DNA from: a bacterium
Lineage (GTDB): Bacteria > Patescibacteriota > Minisyncoccia > Phycocordibacterales > Zambryskibacteraceae
Assembly (NCBI GenBank): GCA_030649135.1
Contig: JAUSGI010000005.1
Coordinates: 1-64,000 of the forward strand
Length of the DNA stretch: 64,000 nucleotides
Reading direction: 5' to 3'
In this document: positions 3,714 to 9,872 of the stretch, piece by piece
Numbering within the stretch: the first letter of the stretch is position 1
Layout: each line of letters starts with the position of its first letter
The notes under the pieces: model-generated
The model's input: the letters and a program-made list of their open reading frames with translations, nothing else
What the model was told of the DNA's origin: nothing
The model's database searches: none
Position numbers and translations under genes: made by a program

Positions 3714-4247
3714 TTAACCCTGCTTCTGCGAATACTCTTCGTTGTATAGTTTTAGCCCTTCTTCAAAGGCGTTTTCCGCCTCAATTCTACCCTTAAAACC
3801 CTTAACCTCGACGACTTTGTCCTGGAGCTTCTTGTAGGTGCTGTAGAAATGCTCGATTTCCTTGAGAGTGTGGGGGTTCACGTCATTTAAGTCTTTGAGG
3901 GTGGCGAAACGCGGATCATCGACTGGCACGGCGATAATCTTGTCGTCTCCCTCGCCGGAATCAATCATGTTCATGATAGCCACCGGCCGGACACGCACCA
4001 GAATGCCGGGCATTAAGGGGTAAGTAGTGAGAATAATCACATCCAAAGGGTCCTTGTCATGCCAGAGAGAGCGCGGCACGAAGCCGTAGTCGAAAGGAAA
4101 GTCCTGCGCGGTATGAGCCACCCGGTCCAGGGCGATGAGGCCGGTCTTCTTGTCTATCTCGTATTTATTTTTCGAACCCTTGTTGATTTCAACGATGACG
4201 TTGATGGATTCCTTGGAACCCGGTTCTATGTCGTGCCAGAGATTCAT
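3714..4247 (-). CDS. ppa: inorganic pyrophosphatase
   Basis: 177 aa; family I PPase signature (EINKGSKNKYEID...DPLDVIIL...DDKII). Confidence 0.9.
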   Translation of the reverse strand: MNLWHDIEPGSKESINVIVEINKGSKNKYEIDKKTGLIALDRVAHTAQDFPFDYGFVPRSLWHDKDPLDVIILTTYPLMPGILVRVRPVAIMNMIDSGEGDDKIIAVPVDDPRFATLKDLNDVNPHTLKEIEHFYSTYKKLQDKVVEVKGFKGRIEAENAFEEGLKLYNEEYSQKQG

Positions 4248-4268: not shown

Positions 4269-5408
<1,140 letters not shown>

Positions 5409-5482
5409 GATGTGAATTGTTACGAATTAAACCGTATTAACGAGAGAGGTTCGCCTCGCGGCGAACCTCTCCGAATAACCTA

Positions 5483-5511
5483 TTACTCTCCTAGTATAAC
5501 AAATCCCTAAA
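5483..5511 (-). promoter_or_regulatory. candidate sigma70-type promoter for nusA (TTGCAA, 17 nt spacer, TATACT), followed by a leader hairpin at 5442-5472
   Basis: Read on the minus strand: TTGCAAaaaatttagggatttgtTATACT. The 5' UTR contains a perfect 12-bp stem (GAGAGGTTCGCC gcga GGCGAACCTCTC) about 30 nt upstream of the nusA ATG. Confidence 0.5.
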
Positions 5512-5564
5512 TTTTTTGCAAGCCTTCCTGTCAGAAATCTCCGGTACTGAAGAACTCTGACAGG

Positions 5565-5589
5565 AAGCCGACGTTGCATCGGCTTTTTG
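5565..5589 (+). terminator. plus-strand intrinsic-terminator-like hairpin (AAGCCGA cgttgca TCGGCTT TTTTGA)
   Basis: 7-bp GC-containing stem followed by a T5 run on the plus strand; no plus-strand gene ends here (see findings). Confidence 0.35.
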
Positions 5590-5692
5590 AGGATGGTGAT
5601 TCTCGGGAGTTGGAAGGTCTCCCACCCCTTCTGTTGCCAGGCCGTCCTCACGGCCCCGGTGACCCACGTGATAATCAGCGTATTGCTGCCGG

Positions 5693-6013
5693 CTAGGATG
5701 CCAGCGCAATCTCACTAATCTCAAGCCCCAGAAGATCCGAGAGGTAGGTGTCAACCTCCTCCGGCATCCTCTCCGGCTTGACCACGAGGATCAGGCTGGG
5801 CACCATACCCCTTTCCGGGATAGGAGCCTGCGCCATCACCCACTCGACCTTGGAATCCGACATGCGGTTTTCCACCGCAGCCAGACGCCCAAAGCAAGTG
5901 GTGCAGGCGCACCCCAACCACATCACCTCGAACGCGACGAGATTGCTCTCGACGCGACCGAAGCGAGGGTTGGACCAGCCGTCCACCCGCAGGCGAACGG
6001 TTCGGTTGGCCAT
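5693..6013 (-). CDS. hypothetical small protein with WLGCACTTC (CxCxxC) motif
   Basis: 106 aa from the ATG preceded by GGAGGTGaaatc. GC-rich codon usage, distinct from flanking genes. Possibly a thioredoxin-like or Fe-S-like small protein; not assignable. Confidence 0.45.
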   Translation of the reverse strand: MANRTVRLRVDGWSNPRFGRVESNLVAFEVMWLGCACTTCFGRLAAVENRMSDSKVEWVMAQAPIPERGMVPSLILVVKPERMPEEVDTYLSDLLGLEISEIALAS

Positions 6014-6262
6014 GATTTCACCTCCTTTCATGGCGAGTTATTCACCCGGATACCAACTGATAGCGCCTTCTCGCTAATCAGTCAGAAATCCAAGGCTACA
6101 TTAACGGCTAGGTCGCCCCAATCTTAAAAGAACAGCTGTTTCGCCCTTTTGGGCACATCAGTCGGGATACGCATCCCGAGACAGCAGGGACTAGTTGATA
6201 GTCCCTATGGCGGTTTCATCCGCCCCTCCTTATCCCCAACCTCCCCTGTGCGGGTGAGGATG

Positions 6263-6574
6263 TTACGGGGTCGAATCACCTTTCCCGGCATACTTACTCC
6301 GGTACTCAGCGATGAGCGCGTCCGCCTCCTCAGTCGAGGAGACGACCTGCCGGAGGCTAACCCTCCGGTTGAGCGTGCCGAACCGGCACGCCACGCGCGG
6401 ATTGGCAGCTTCGCCAATCCGAAGGACGAGCAGGTACCCGTCCTTCGTCTTGCGCAAGGAATGAGACATCTCCTCGTCGCAAAACTGGCGCACGACTACG
6501 CCGTCCGCGCTGGGAGCGGAATTGCACCCAGCGAAGAGCACGACCAGACAAAGAACAGCGGCAAACTTGATCAT
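6263..6574 (-). CDS. hypothetical lipoprotein
   Basis: 103 aa; signal peptide with lipobox (VVLFAGC); AGGAGaataagac ATG start; GC-rich. Confidence 0.5.
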   Translation of the reverse strand: MIKFAAVLCLVVLFAGCNSAPSADGVVVRQFCDEEMSHSLRKTKDGYLLVLRIGEAANPRVACRFGTLNRRVSLRQVVSSTEEADALIAEYRSKYAGKGDSTP

Positions 6575-6610
6575 GTCTTATTCTCCTGCGGCCTCGCCGC
6601 TTTCGAACAT

Positions 6611-6660
6611 TAAAGAACTTGAGCGAACCATTTCGCTCTTCTGAAAATCCAATTCCATTA
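6611..6660 (-). promoter_or_regulatory. copy 1 of a duplicated ~50-nt hairpin element located immediately 5' of the lipoprotein gene
   Basis: AAAGAACTTGAGCGAAccATTTCGCTCTTCTGAAaa... shares about 85 percent identity with 6985-7040. Forms a GAGCGAA/TTCGCTC stem extended by AGAA/TTCT. Confidence 0.5.
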
Positions 6661-6676
6661 GATTTTCGGAACAGCG

Positions 6677-6706
6677 GGCGAAGCATTGCACTTCGCCGGG
6701 TTTTTT
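6677..6706 (+). terminator. plus-strand intrinsic-terminator-like hairpin (GGCGAAG cattgca CTTCGCC GGG TTTTTT)
   Basis: Stem-loop followed by T6 on the plus strand, inside the GC-rich block. Confidence 0.35.
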
Positions 6707-6792
6707 AACGTGGTTCACTCCACGGAGCTGTGGTCTCGCCTCGGGATTATGATTTGCCCGAGATCCCCACTCATGTTTGCTCAGGCACCTTC

Positions 6793-6960
6793 GACTTACT
6801 TTCCAAAGCGATACAGCAGCTTTAGGAAGTAAGGAAAGGCCGCGAAGGACTGCGCACCTTTGAAGGCGAGGTTGCATCGCTTGCATACCATCACAAGCTG
6901 CCCGTCATCCGGGTCCTCGACCCCCTCAAGGAGTTTGTCCTTACACTCCGGACAGTCCGT
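6793..6960 (-). CDS. hypothetical 55-aa zinc-ribbon protein (CPEC...CKRC)
   Basis: MTDCPECKDKLLEGVEDPDDGQLVMVCKRCNLAF...; two CxxC pairs; preceded by GGAGGTGGTAAGAG. Below the 60-aa ORF-track cutoff; translated manually. Confidence 0.4.
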
Positions 6961-6984
6961 CATCTCTTACCACCTCCTTCTTCC

Positions 6985-7040
6985 AAAGAACTTGAGCGAA
7001 TTATTTCGCTCTTCTGAAGAACCAAATTTCAATTTTTAGT
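6985..7040 (-). promoter_or_regulatory. copy 2 of the duplicated ~50-nt hairpin element located immediately 5' of the zinc-ribbon gene
   Basis: CAAAGAACTTGAGCGAAttATTTCGCTCTTCTGAAgaaccAAATTTCAATT; same architecture as 6611-6660. Confidence 0.5.
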
Positions 7041-7498
7041 TCCTCGGAAGAGGGGGCTAGAGAAGTTCTCTCGCCCCGGCGTAGTCTGGAGTCCCGGTTT
7101 CCCTATGCCGGGTTATCTCCAGTTAAGGACCCACGCAAGGTCCCGCGCCACAGTCGAGGCTTCCCTCGAACGTCTGTGACGACTCGCCGCAACAACCATT
7201 GCGGCAGCAGGGGCTGAGATCATCAGCCAACCGCCTGCACGGCCGGTGGACTCTGGCGCGTTTTGGGGTACGCACCGCTCCACCATGGGAAGAACAAAAC
7301 CCTGTTTCATCCTTTCGGAATCATCAGCCCGGATACACATCCGGATACAGGAACCAGGGTTTAGCATTCCTGGTAGCGGCTCTGCTTCCGCGCGGCTCAC
7401 CACTCTAAGTAGGTGACACTTCTCTGTTTGTTATCGCGGGACAGAGAGCCGCGTATGCATTTTCTGTTCCCAGGACTGCGATAACACCCCGGCTAACC

Positions 7499-7669
7499 CT
7501 AAGTTAGCAGTACCCGGAGGGAGAAGATTACTTCCTTCTCCTCCAACGATCGGTCCGTCCTCCAGAAGGGAAAGAAATCGCTCGAAGCGACTCCCTCCTC
7601 TCGGATTTCGGACGACCGTCGGGGCTGTAGCCAGCCCGGGCGAGAATCATAGTGGCTTGCACCACCAGA
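7499..7669 (-). CDS. possible small basic ORF (56 aa, GTG start after GGAGGTGagtgagt)
   Basis: VEKGKKNLVVQATMILARAGYSPDGRPKSERRESLRA...; first ORF downstream of the minus-strand promoter at 7733-7761; weak evidence. Confidence 0.2.
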   Translation of the reverse strand, partial: SGGASHYDSRPGWLQPRRSSEIREEGVASSDFFPFWRTDRSLEEKEVIFSLRVLLT

Positions 7670-7732
7670 TTCTTCTTACCTTTTTCCACTCACTCACCTC
7701 CTTTCAGGGAACCTTGTCAGCGTCCGATTACA

Positions 7733-7761
7733 ATCTTACTCCATGTGATATTTATTGTCAA
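7733..7761 (-). promoter_or_regulatory. candidate sigma70 promoter reading into the GC-rich block (TTGACA, 17 nt spacer, TAAGAT)
   Basis: Minus-strand read TTGACAataaatatcacatggagTAAGAT within the AT-rich 7700-7950 hub. Confidence 0.45.
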
Positions 7762-7906
7762 CTCATTTTGACACTTTACTACAACTGGTCGTAAAAATAT
7801 GGCTAAATAAGACCATAGTTTGAAATATGAGTTTAATTTGGTCTGACTAAACTAGTATTTAAAGGGTTGATATTTTTGACCAATAATGGTGTTTAGTCAT
7901 TTACGT

Positions 7907-7935
7907 TTGACAAATAAAATTAGGGGGTATATACT
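7907..7935 (+). promoter_or_regulatory. candidate sigma70 promoter (TTGACA, 17 nt spacer, TATACT) with no protein gene downstream
   Basis: TTGACAaataaaattagggggtaTATACT. The next ~220 nt has no ORF over 22 codons and ends in the strong hairpin at 8131-8155. Confidence 0.5.
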
Positions 7936-8130
7936 GGTGACAGAAACTCCTCGAAAGGAGAGTGCATGAACGACTAGGGGATGGGGAAGTCCGGGGCGTA
8001 GCGCCCCGGACATGACCCAGAAATGCGGTTAACAGAAAAGGAGATTGGGATGGCCGACTGATGTCGTACCTAGGGTAGCTTCAAAAACCAGGAGGGGGTT
8101 ATGCTGTTAGCAATGACCCCACCCACAAAT

Positions 8131-8167
8131 GCCGTGGCGGCTTCACCGCCACGGCATCTTCATTTAT
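8131..8167. terminator. GC hairpin (GCCGTGGCGG cttca CCGCCACGGC) followed by a T-rich tract; terminator for the TrmB-like gene and/or the plus-strand transcript
   Basis: 10-bp perfect stem; flanked by T-rich sequence on the plus strand and lying just 3' of the minus-strand gene ending at 8160. Confidence 0.5.
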
Positions 8168-8900
8168 GATCAAAGATGTATTTGATAAGGCTTTTAAGAG
8201 TTTCTGCAAACTCCTGACTTTTTACAGATATTCCTGAAAGTCTTTTCCCGAGTATGGCTATTTTCACACGATCGCCATAAATCGTTATGTCACTTGTAAT
8301 CGGATACTTTTCATGATCTATTTTAATTCTTTCTCCAGTGCTATCAGACGGTTTATCGATAATTTTCGAGGTGTAAATTGATTTCGACCTGATTCCTCTG
8401 GAAATCCTTTCCTCTCGCATATTCGTCGTTTCTTTTTCAGTAAATAGATCTTTTACTAAATCTAGTGGATATACCATATAGACTGGTTCGTCATCGAGTT
8501 TTTTTACAAAAGTATCATCGTTGGAACTCAAGACCCCTTCCTTACCATCGAAAAACTGGACTATAGGTTTTCCTACTCGCTCTCCTTGGAGACCTCTCAA
8601 TTGGGGGATGATGATATCTAAGCTTTTTTTGTTTTCCTCTAGAAGGTGAATTTGTCTCTCAACAAAGAAACCGAGTTTCTCCGGTGGTTCGGCTAGGTAA
8701 TAAGTCTTTTTACCTATATTGGTCTCACTTACAAGACCCTTTTTAGCCAAAGAGTCGAGAATGACATAAGTTGTTGGTCTTTTAACTTTCGCTTTTTGTG
8801 AGATCTCTGATATTTGAGCCTTGTCGAAAGAGAGGAGGGCGACATAGACTGCCGCTTCCTTATCGCTCAATCCTATATCCCTGAGATATTTCTCGAACAT
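8160..8900 (-). CDS. TrmB-family HTH transcriptional regulator
   Basis: 246 aa; the N-terminal wHTH (DKEAAVYVALLSFDKAQISEISQKAKVKRPTTYVILDSLAKKGLV) matches the TrmB sugar-regulator family layout. Confidence 0.75.
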   Translation of the reverse strand: MFEKYLRDIGLSDKEAAVYVALLSFDKAQISEISQKAKVKRPTTYVILDSLAKKGLVSETNIGKKTYYLAEPPEKLGFFVERQIHLLEENKKSLDIIIPQLRGLQGERVGKPIVQFFDGKEGVLSSNDDTFVKKLDDEPVYMVYPLDLVKDLFTEKETTNMREERISRGIRSKSIYTSKIIDKPSDSTGERIKIDHEKYPITSDITIYGDRVKIAILGKRLSGISVKSQEFAETLKSLIKYIFDHK

Positions 8901-8933: not shown

Positions 8934-9872
8934 TTACTTCCTCCTTGAATGAAACCTTTTGTGGGTATCGCGAAGCGCCTTGTCGGTGACGTGGGTATAT
9001 ATTTGAGTTGTCGAAATATTGGCGTGGCCGAGAAGCATTTGGACGCTACGAAGGTCGGCGCCATTGCTTAAAAGATCAGTAGCAAAGCTGTGACGAATAA
9101 CGTGAGGTGTCACTTTTTTTGAAATGCCGGCTTTTATCGCATAATGCTTCACAATTCTTTCTATCGAGCGGCGAGTGAGAGGAAGGGAGTCTTTGGTTTT
9201 AGTGTTTTTCCCTACCTGAACAAAGAGGGCATCATTCATATCCTTGCGAGCTTTGAGATATTTGGATACGGCGTTTCTCGCTTCATCAGAAACAAAGACT
9301 ACCCGCACCTTACTGCCTTTACCCCTGATAGAAAACTCCCCGACAGAAAGATCAGTATCATTATTTAACGAGCAGAGTTCGGATACACGAAGCCCTGTGG
9401 AGAAAAGCATTTCAAGGATAGCTTTGTCGCGAAGTTCTTTAATTCCATCGCCTTTGGGCATCTCAAGTAGGCGAGTGAGTTCGGCAGGGGAGATGAGATC
9501 AAGAGAGCGTTCTCCAACTTTAGCCAGTTCAATGCGTTCTGCTGGCAGACTTGTAATTTCTTGCCGAGCCAGATACTTGAGAAAAGAGCGTAAGGCAATC
9601 AGATAATAATTCTGCGTCTTCTTCGACATGGTTTCACCGGTTTGTCGGTTATTGCCGGTCGACTGGCGGTTAAGCCACATCCTAAATTCTCTCACCACTT
9701 CGTCACTAATATCCTTCGGATTTTTTACTTCGGTATGCTTAAGAAAAACGGAAAGGTAGTGGTCATAGTTCTCAATAGTCTTGAGTGCCCGGCCCTTTTC
9801 GATCTCGGTATATTCCAGAAATCCTCTCTTTAATCGCTCTAGTTCACTAACATTCCCCATATTGTGCGACAT
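8934..9872 (-). CDS. xerD: tyrosine site-specific recombinase (XerC/XerD / phage-integrase family)
   Basis: 312 aa; C-terminal catalytic box HVIRHSFATDLLSNGADLRSVQMLLGHANISTTQIYTHV (R..HxxR..Y). Confidence 0.88.
   Translation of the reverse strand: MSHNMGNVSELERLKRGFLEYTEIEKGRALKTIENYDHYLSVFLKHTEVKNPKDISDEVVREFRMWLNRQSTGNNRQTGETMSKKTQNYYLIALRSFLKYLARQEITSLPAERIELAKVGERSLDLISPAELTRLLEMPKGDGIKELRDKAILEMLFSTGLRVSELCSLNNDTDLSVGEFSIRGKGSKVRVVFVSDEARNAVSKYLKARKDMNDALFVQVGKNTKTKDSLPLTRRSIERIVKHYAIKAGISKKVTPHVIRHSFATDLLSNGADLRSVQMLLGHANISTTQIYTHVTDKALRDTHKRFHSRRK

Follow-up and report, generated by a model that had tools for sequence, protein, structure and literature searches.

A TrmB-linked small-gene operon with hammerhead ribozyme folds and covarying RNA modules upstream of nusA in a Zambryskibacteraceae genome

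A block of small genes and structured RNA was analyzed in a 64,000-nucleotide stretch of bacterial DNA (contig JAUSGI010000005.1, assembly GCA_030649135.1, Zambryskibacteraceae; positions 1 to 64,000, hereafter the window). The block spans from the start of nusA at 5408 to a promoter at 7761-7733. The real unit runs from a TrmB-like regulator gene (8900) through the gene of a 106-amino-acid (aa) protein, p106, and about 85 nt past the p106 stop, and the block belongs to this TrmB-like gene (8900-8160), not to nusA. It is probably the variable middle of a conserved operon of Parcubacteria-type bacteria of the Candidate Phyla Radiation (CPR), composed of the TrmB gene, a promoter, a 1.7-kb structured polycistronic RNA, and p106 as the last gene. 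The comparison established the gene linkage, the hammerhead folds, the covariation of the p106 5' leader, the p106 3' element and a repeated module termed Z, the co-variation of two RNA loops, and the conservation of p106 and of a second small protein, p53, at the protein level. The genes and the promoter are as follows.

5693-6013, minus strand: p106, conserved 106-aa CxCxxC protein with three invariant cysteines; Shine-Dalgarno sequence (SD) GGAGGTG
6263-6574, minus strand: p103, 103-aa protein with lipoprotein-like signal MIKFAAVLCLVVLFAGC; SD AGGAG; GC at third codon positions (GC3) 0.75
6796-6963, minus strand: p55, zinc-ribbon-like protein CPEC..CKRC (CPxC..CxxC); SD GGAGGTG; GC3 0.70
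7528-7689, minus strand: p53, small basic protein with GTG start; SD GGAGGTG at 7701-7695; 56 aa if started at GTG 7698
7733-7761, minus strand: operon promoter of sigma-70 type, TTGACA-17-TAAGAT, 10/12 match
8160-8900, minus strand: TrmB-family helix-turn-helix regulator gene, 246 aa; Pfam PF01978, E=1.7e-15, residues 6-73

The original prediction described positions 5409-7700 as a GC-rich block of low coding density with small minus-strand genes, and this description was confirmed. The GC content is 55.5%, compared with a whole-window mean of 46.8% (sd 3.0, 2292-nt windows). A value as high was found in one of 618 equal-size windows, at a position overlapping nusA. The four small minus-strand open reading frames (ORFs), of 106, 103, 55, and 53 aa, occupy about 960 of the 2292 nt (about 42% coding). 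The sharp contrast in composition and codon usage claimed for both flanks holds on the TrmB side (38% GC); nusA itself has 54% GC and a GC3 of 0.64, similar to the 0.70-0.79 of p106, p103, and p55. The GC-richness of the block is attributed to RNA structure and to GC3-rich codons common to nusA. The claim that GGAGGTG precedes every small gene is correct for p106, p55, and p53, while p103 has AGGAG only. As had been noted, no RimP-like ORF lies upstream of nusA; no ORF of the block matched the RimP Pfam family at E up to 1. The long non-coding stretches were said to be rich in stable hairpins, and they do fold more strongly than shuffled sequences, with z = -7.0 for 7527-6964 and z = -3.5 for 6262-6014. 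An independent Logan assembly from another sequencing run, SRR13727527 (L014), is identical to the window over 7483-5409, and the block is therefore no assembly artefact.

The promoter at 7733-7761 points into the block, as predicted. The view that this is not a normal nusA leader region also stands; the block is a small-gene operon with long structured non-coding stretches, and this promoter drives it. Its -35 box is half of a TGTCAA-N6-TTGACA inverted repeat. The promoter is kept, with repeated TGTCAA boxes upstream, in two of the relatives (L022 and L025); relatives are DNA fetched around p106 homologues and labelled L001 onward. The AT-rich spacer from about 7756-7775 up to about 7915 carries four TGTCAA/TTGACA boxes kept in L022 and L025. 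These boxes are a candidate operator for the TrmB-like protein. This protein scored 20-24 bits on the NCBIfam models of TrmB, TrmBL1, and TrmBL2, for which the cut-offs are 530-650, and it stands outside these characterised sugar-sensing equivalogs.

Wherever a locus reaches far enough upstream, a TrmB-family gene lies in the same orientation 0.8-2.3 kb ahead of the p106 homologue, and the gap between the two genes is ORF-poor in the fetched loci. The linkage of TrmB, leader, and p106 spans several Parcubacteria-type lineages, including the distant L040 and L041. The outer neighbours vary: a KsgA-like methyltransferase (PF00398) and UvrD in loci of the Giovannonibacteria type, ClpP in L040, and nusA in the window. 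Because TrmB, the structured leader, and p106 co-occur in every adequately sequenced relative, the operon core is vertically conserved and chromosomal, not foreign. The recurrence of the TrmB-leader-p106 unit in relatives did not bear out the foreign origin proposed in the original prediction, which had also overlooked both the hammerhead ribozymes and the connection with the TrmB-like gene.

At the protein level, 19 homologues of p106 were found at 62-100% identity with the three cysteines invariant, and a full profile search gave 27 clusters. The structure model of p106 is confident, with a predicted local distance difference test (pLDDT) score of 92. p53 has a homologue in L029 (tblastn, 56% over 41 aa, E=1e-11), from which it differs mainly at third codon positions; judged by this pattern, p53 is a real conserved protein.

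Two RNA elements flank the p106 coding sequence.

6011-6107, minus strand: p106 5' leader with ACGUAG box, hairpin 6096-6045, GNUGAAU box, and SD GGAGGTG
5593-5669, minus strand: p106 3' element, ACCGG-hairpin Pb-UGGCAACAGAAG (5639-5628)-hairpin Pc with loop ACCUUCCAA (5618-5610)

The leader hairpin was compared in 15 sequences. It is 93% paired, and 16 of its 20 pairs are changed on both sides; no shuffle of 500 matched it, and slid controls reached 33-46%. The leader covariance model, R2, gave one match per locus, always 5' of p106, including the distant L040 and L044. The 3' element is 92% paired, and both partners have changed in 10 of its 15 pairs. The apical loop of the leader is AGAAGG in the window (6071-6066), and AGAAGG or UGAAGG is conserved across lineages. 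The Pc loop of the 3' element is complementary to this 5' hexaloop by at least five Watson-Crick pairs in 16 of 16 loci. The loop pairs are as follows.

Most loci: 5' GAAGG, 3' CCUUC
L030: 5' GAGGG, 3' CCCUC
L044: 5' GAGAG, 3' CUCUC
L013: 5' GAAGAA, 3' UUCUUC

Both loops changed together in three lineages (L030, L044, and L013), which gives four loop types in total. The complementarity across types is 2-5 nt, and just the native assignment, one of 24 permutations, keeps all four types at five pairs or more. A random 6-mer reaches at least five pairs with a random 9-mer in 0.9% of trials. We read this co-variation as a putative kissing-loop contact between the 5' and 3' untranslated regions (UTRs) of the p106 mRNA. 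The 5' partner lies about 45-50 nt upstream of the SD, so the pairing would not occlude the SD.

Both loops look like SD or anti-SD sequences, and they might act without touching each other, one imitating an SD (ribosome standby or decoy site) and the other imitating an anti-SD and masking the SD of p106, in the manner of icaR. The 3' loops can, by inspection, form wobble pairs with the invariant GGAGG, and the p55 leader, too, has a predicted long-range anti-SD/SD pairing. Against this, L030, L044, and L013 each changed the two loops together although neither the SD nor the 16S anti-SD varies, and GAGAG/CUCUC and GAAGAA/UUCUUC are poor mimics of SD and anti-SD. Independent action of the two loops is thus considered unlikely. 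Pairing between 5' UTR and 3' UTR is known in bacterial mRNAs, such as icaR of Staphylococcus aureus and the fold-back inhibition in hok mRNA. As in these cases, the 3' UTR holds a pyrimidine-rich, anti-SD-like segment whose complement lies in the 5' UTR of the same short mRNA. The kissing-loop reading differs in that the partner, instead of the SD or the extreme 5' end, is an apical loop on a dedicated hairpin in the 5' UTR, and in that the 3' loop forms part of a larger conserved element, ACCGG..UGGCAACAGAAG.

Further upstream in the predicted transcript, two hammerhead ribozymes of type III were identified.

6127-6191, minus strand: hammerhead copy A, predicted cut C6180/U6179, triplet GUC
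7296-7357, minus strand: hammerhead copy B, predicted cut A7346/U7345, triplet GUA

Copy A was matched by the Rfam family RF00008 (Hammerhead_3) at 6187-6133 with 42.7 bits (E=3e-7) under a relaxed threshold. Copy B was absent from the relaxed Rfam output and was found via self-similarity (about 7350-7302). A descriptor scan gave three further copies with a canonical core, two in L022 and one in L025. In these five copies the three-helix fold, with stems I and II capped and stem III open, is 96% paired and kept by compensatory changes: 7 of 16 pairs are changed on both sides, none of 500 shuffles was as good, and slid controls reached 31-46%. The hammerhead covariance model, R1, scored copy B at 76 bits and copy A at 83 bits, and its matches in the first 23 sources were confined to the five copies. 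A sixth copy, also canonical, lies directly after the TrmB gene of the distant L041. The window copies carry an NUH cleavage triplet, as do those in relatives (GUU or GUC). The core of copy B is complete (CUGAUGA..GAAAC), and its stem II opens with a U10.1-U11.1 mismatch. Copy A has the core CUGAUGU, with U at position 9 (T6155) in place of the conserved A9. Every copy sits 5' of small ORFs and is followed by a UGNUCUUU box. Copies A and B lie on the same strand 1.17 kb apart and bracket p55 and p103, and the L022 pair is arranged likewise. The L041 hammerhead (1364-1428), followed by UGUUCUUU, precedes an APH-family kinase gene (1476-2453) inserted before the p106-like gene.

An Rfam scan had been proposed as a check on whether the block is a known conserved non-coding RNA (ncRNA). 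In the block, at the gathering threshold and at E up to 10, and in ten related loci, at E 0.1 and 0.5, it returned just tRNAs and sub-threshold Hammerhead_3. No known large ncRNA was therefore recovered in the block, and twister, pistol, hatchet, hepatitis delta virus (HDV), riboswitch, and large-RNA families had no match in the block and the ten loci.

The rest of the RNA upstream of p106 is built of modules.

7435-7492, minus strand: core44 (AACAGAA-type element), CCGG-hairpin-UGGGAACAGAAAAUGC, then hairpin CGCGG/CCGCG; preceded by a variable hairpin at 7510-7493
7376-7417, minus strand: Y module, GUCACC..GGUGAGCC and a hairpin with conserved loop AAGCAGAG
6985-7079, minus strand: Z module copy 1, ending 22 nt before the p55 start
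6612-6700, minus strand: Z module copy 2, ending 37 nt before the p103 start

L022 and L025 (three copies) match the 44-nt stretch 7492-7449 of core44 at 98% identity, and the stretch also occurs in L013. Its architecture, CCGG-hairpin-UGGGAACAGAA-hairpin, is that of the p106 3' element, and core44 is best seen, from this likeness, as a paralogue of that element. The core44 copies come after stop codons, and a hammerhead follows in three cases. The scan of viral contigs (IMG/VR) gave no core44. The Y module is common to L013, L025, and Giovannonibacteria-type loci, and its stem is GCGG/CCGC or CUGG/CCAG. The Z module consists of a hairpin GGGGCGAG.., a helix UUCCG..CAGAAG, a hairpin GAGCGAA/UUCGCUC, and the box GUUCUUU; it is 96% paired with five pairs changed on both sides. 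Z also precedes p106 in some Giovannonibacteria-type loci, and in L045 it precedes other small ORFs. Since these modules are present, absent, or duplicated depending on the relative, the leader is mosaic in composition. Rfam has no entry for the p106 leader, the AACAGAA element, or the Z module, and neither Pfam nor NCBIfam has one for the p106 family.

Other readings of core44 were considered and set aside. Its reading as loop A of a hairpin ribozyme (A|GUC opposite AGAA) was rejected by inspection: the opposite strand is AAAA, the counterpart of catalytic G8 is missing, and the flanking helices are without covariation. Its readings as a DNA site, namely a sigma-54 promoter (GG-N10-GC), an Xer dif site, or a TrmB operator, were dropped because the 44-nt conservation is strand-specific and homologous to a 3'-UTR RNA element. 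A local pseudoknot between the core44 hairpin loop and sequence 7-9 nt downstream is suggestive only; counted by eye, it spans 7 bp in the window copy and 6, 5, and 4 bp in others, one copy lacks it, and per-copy shuffles reach it in 7-49%. As a separate observation, the sequence after the p53 stop at 7513-7527 (UCUUCUCCCUCC) pairs with the p55 ribosome-binding region at 6966-6985 (GGAAGAAGGAGGUGG) across 540 nt in the predicted minimum free energy fold of the minus-strand RNA. In this folding model the pairing could be a long-range anti-SD contact or could be due to chance.

The p106 5' hairpin and the ACCGG-hairpin-UGGCAACAGAAG-hairpin element may be the halves of one RNA device that closes the p106 mRNA end to end, with the core44 copies beside hammerheads used as mRNA punctuation or as a regulatory unit. 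This proposal is tentative. If true, the device would represent a class of cis-acting RNA that is confined to CPR bacteria and has not been described before. It might be a switch controlled by a ligand or a protein or, less likely, a catalytic motif that clusters with hammerheads.

The genes between the RNA modules behave differently from the operon core. For p55 and p103, a search among 5.8 billion proteins gave self matches alone, and p55 also had weak zinc-ribbon Pfam matches. The closest relatives, L022, L025, L029, and L045, carry other small genes between the same RNA modules. The small genes in these positions of the relatives encode HxxxCxxC proteins, small membrane proteins, a micro-ORF of 24-26 codons, and the L041 kinase. 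The accessory small genes are cassette-like in behaviour, and no recombination machinery or recombination sites were identified for them. The nearest distinct relative is L045, whose p106 is 86% identical; its small ORFs differ from those of the window. In L022, the identities are 87% for nusA, 83% for the XerC-like gene, and 77% for TrmB. The TrmB-to-p106 block of L022 lies on the opposite side of the XerC-like gene relative to the window, and the gene preceding nusA there is the XerC-like recombinase. The XerC/XerD-like gene is located at 8934-9872 (minus strand) in the window, upstream of the TrmB-like gene, and at 5966-6907 in L022, between the array and nusA. The order of block and recombinase is thus swapped between these two close relatives.

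These observations bear on a quite improbable alternative, in which the block arrived horizontally as a mobile cassette array (an integron-like element or prophage remnant) and was inserted beside nusA by the neighbouring tyrosine recombinase, with the repeats as recombination sites. In its favour are the variation of accessory ORFs between close relatives, the orphan status of p55 and p103, the swap around the XerC-like gene, a hammerhead subtype otherwise found in phages, and GC above the genome mean. The core of TrmB, leader, p106, and 3' element is, however, kept across many CPR lineages, and the spacer that follows p106 in the window is the same in L045 up to the position of the window's nusA promoter. 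The recombinase scored 254 bits on XerD and 236 bits on XerC, while the integron-integrase model TIGR02249 gave 128 bits against a cut-off of 265. The repeats are strand-specific covarying RNA modules 5' of ribosome-binding sites, without attC-like palindromes flanking the ORFs. No PHROG family was matched at E<0.01, and the core element is absent from IMG/VR. Integron cassette arrays do likewise hold short, variable, mostly orphan ORFs between structured repeats with a tyrosine recombinase adjacent; in contrast to them, no IntI-type integrase, attI, or attC is present here, and the repeats do not define cassette boundaries. The repeat scan for attC (RYYYAAC...GTTRRRY) gave just a 41-nt Z repeat and short pairs, with GUUCUUU as the recurring box. 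Of the earlier description as a foreign cassette array or operon, the operon and its cassette-like accessory genes are retained, while the foreign origin and integron features are not. That the whole 2.7 kb is instead one large ncRNA in the sense of OLE, GOLLD, or ROOL, with small ORFs by chance, is highly improbable: the folding signal is very strong and the Giovannonibacteria-type leader of 1.4 kb is without a conserved long ORF, but p106 and p53 are conserved as proteins, p103 and p55 carry SDs, a GC3 bias, and features of a signal peptide or zinc ribbon, the RNA modules form a mosaic and are swapped between relatives, and no large-RNA family of Rfam was matched.

In the conserved-operon reading, the TrmB-like protein would control the promoter 7761-7733 via the repeated TGTCAA boxes. 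The primary transcript would cut itself at A7346/U7345 and C6180/U6179 to yield three RNAs, the first with p53 and core44/Y, the second with p55-p103, and the third with p106. Each downstream RNA would start with a 5'-OH and a compact ribozyme fold, and such ends could insulate the translation starts of the small genes from upstream context and set separate stabilities. The Z modules would fold beside the ribosome-binding sites of p55 and p103 and act on translation initiation, as would the p106 leader for p106. The anti-SD-like CCUUC loop at the 3' end would kiss the GAAGG loop at the 5' end, join the mRNA ends, and tune the stability or translation of p106. p53, p55, and p103 would be lineage-specific passengers.

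Several points weigh against this mechanism. Control by the TrmB-like protein is guilt by association, and RNA processing by the hammerheads is deduced throughout from sequence. Copy A missed the RF00008 gathering score of 48.5, a threshold that the short-stem subtype misses generally, since the canonical-core copy in L025 also scored just 42.0 bits. No other U9 hammerhead appeared in the viral contig scan, copy A may be slow or dead, and L045 has a Z-type hairpin and no ribozyme where the window has copy A. Hammerheads are missing from most lineages with the TrmB-p106 unit and are therefore not essential to it. The support for loop-loop pairing comes from three changed lineages, of which L013 is of low complexity and reached by 39% of shuffles, and wobble pairing could alternatively join the 3' loop to the invariant SD. 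p106 had no family or fold match in Pfam, NCBIfam, and fold searches.

The closest known ribozymes are the RF00008 hammerheads of PaP3 and LUZ24-like Pseudomonas phages. They have the same core and three-helix junction with open stem III, the same stem I loop (GAUGUGU..) and stem II loop (GAAA/AAAA), and the same position directly 5' of ORFs. Copy B is 91% identical over 45 nt to the hammerheads of 66 Pseudomonas phages, and the one copy inspected, from phage Clew-1, has the same stem II UUCC/GGAU and the same U-U mismatch directly before a coding sequence start. The copies described here differ from the phage ones in lying in a chromosomal CPR operon without phage genes, in the U9 of copy A, in the UGNUCUUU box that follows, and in the core44 that precedes some copies. 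In three viral contigs of IMG/VR, each about 60 kb (L036 at 4256, L037 at 9053, and L038 at 2821), a tRNA-like T-arm (GGGGGTTCAAACCCCC) carries a hammerhead of the same subtype fused directly on its 3' side. RiboJ-type synthetic insulators place a hammerhead and a hairpin 5' of a gene, which removes upstream RNA context. The arrangement found here, likewise a hammerhead in the 5' UTR ahead of an ORF, is a natural one, and its insulating role is putative.

Clustered hammerheads that flank genes are known from prophages, and polycistronic RNAs containing them were cleaved in vitro (Perreault et al. 2011, PMC3088659). The U10.1-U11.1 pair is reported as a natural variant and was the most active mismatch at that pair in earlier mutagenesis (Perreault et al. 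2011, PMC3088659). Similar to the operon described here, the prophage clusters have several ribozymes per transcription unit separating genes or short blocks, with a tyrosine recombinase gene nearby, and their proposed role is processing to gene-length mRNAs (PMC3088659). Unlike the prophage clusters, the present unit is without prophage context (no PHROG at E<0.01), its core is vertically conserved, and its ribozymes occur in a sub-lineage only, interleaved with other conserved RNA modules. A literature search for hammerheads in CPR or Parcubacteria returned no relevant paper. The hammerheads add to a known class, and their placement in a conserved CPR operon varies a known arrangement in a new way.

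CPR bacteria are a large share of bacterial diversity, and their RNA-based gene regulation is almost unknown. Hammerheads inside a vertically conserved chromosomal operon, and not in a phage, make their debated role testable as natural insulators or processors. The co-evolving 5'UTR-3'UTR loop pairing would be a rare bacterial case, and p106 is a new family of small Cys-proteins strictly coupled to a TrmB-type regulator. The signal of a missing rimP and odd GC points here to functional RNA, not to foreign DNA.

Additional features were noted among the small ORFs. A 96-aa ORF at 7403-7113 was rejected as a gene, as it overlaps hammerhead B and its GC is flat over the three codon positions. The conserved micro-ORF of 24-26 codons (..YxVVNGVVYRxRA[DE]AIAARQK*) has an SD and lies in the 1.4-kb leader of the Giovannonibacteria-type loci L001 (about 5567-5644), L002, and L018, among which its differences are synonymous or conservative. 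The HxxxCxxC paralogues of about 60-80 aa were located in L022 (3676-3915 and 4954-5139), L025 (4601-4783), and L029 (about 3720-3900), and one of them directly follows a hammerhead.

Two further structures lie at the ends of the unit.

8129-8157, no strand assigned: 12-bp GC-rich hairpin directly 3' of the TrmB stop, terminator-like on both strands, conserved in L022 and L025
5524-5567, minus strand: inverted repeat with 22-bp arms after the p106 3' element, conserved in L045

The hairpin at 8129-8157 is shared with a predicted plus-strand RNA of about 230 nt (7940-8168), of which it forms the end and which is convergent with the TrmB-like gene. A divergent near-consensus promoter, TTGACA-17-TATACT at 7907-7935 (plus strand), is conserved in L022 and L025. 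The region 7940-8168 (plus strand) has a fold z-score of -5.4 and carries two conserved AUGNNCGACUNR boxes with AGGAG ahead of each. This RNA is a candidate small RNA or antisense regulator of TrmB. The inverted repeat at 5524-5567 is a possible end of the operon transcript, a role assigned from its position immediately ahead of the nusA promoter. A separate promoter serves nusA, TTGCAA-17-TATACT with an extended TG at 5521-5493 (minus strand), and the 5' UTR of this gene carries a perfect 12-bp hairpin at 5471-5444 (minus strand). This nusA leader (5444-5521) is possibly autoregulatory in place of rimP.

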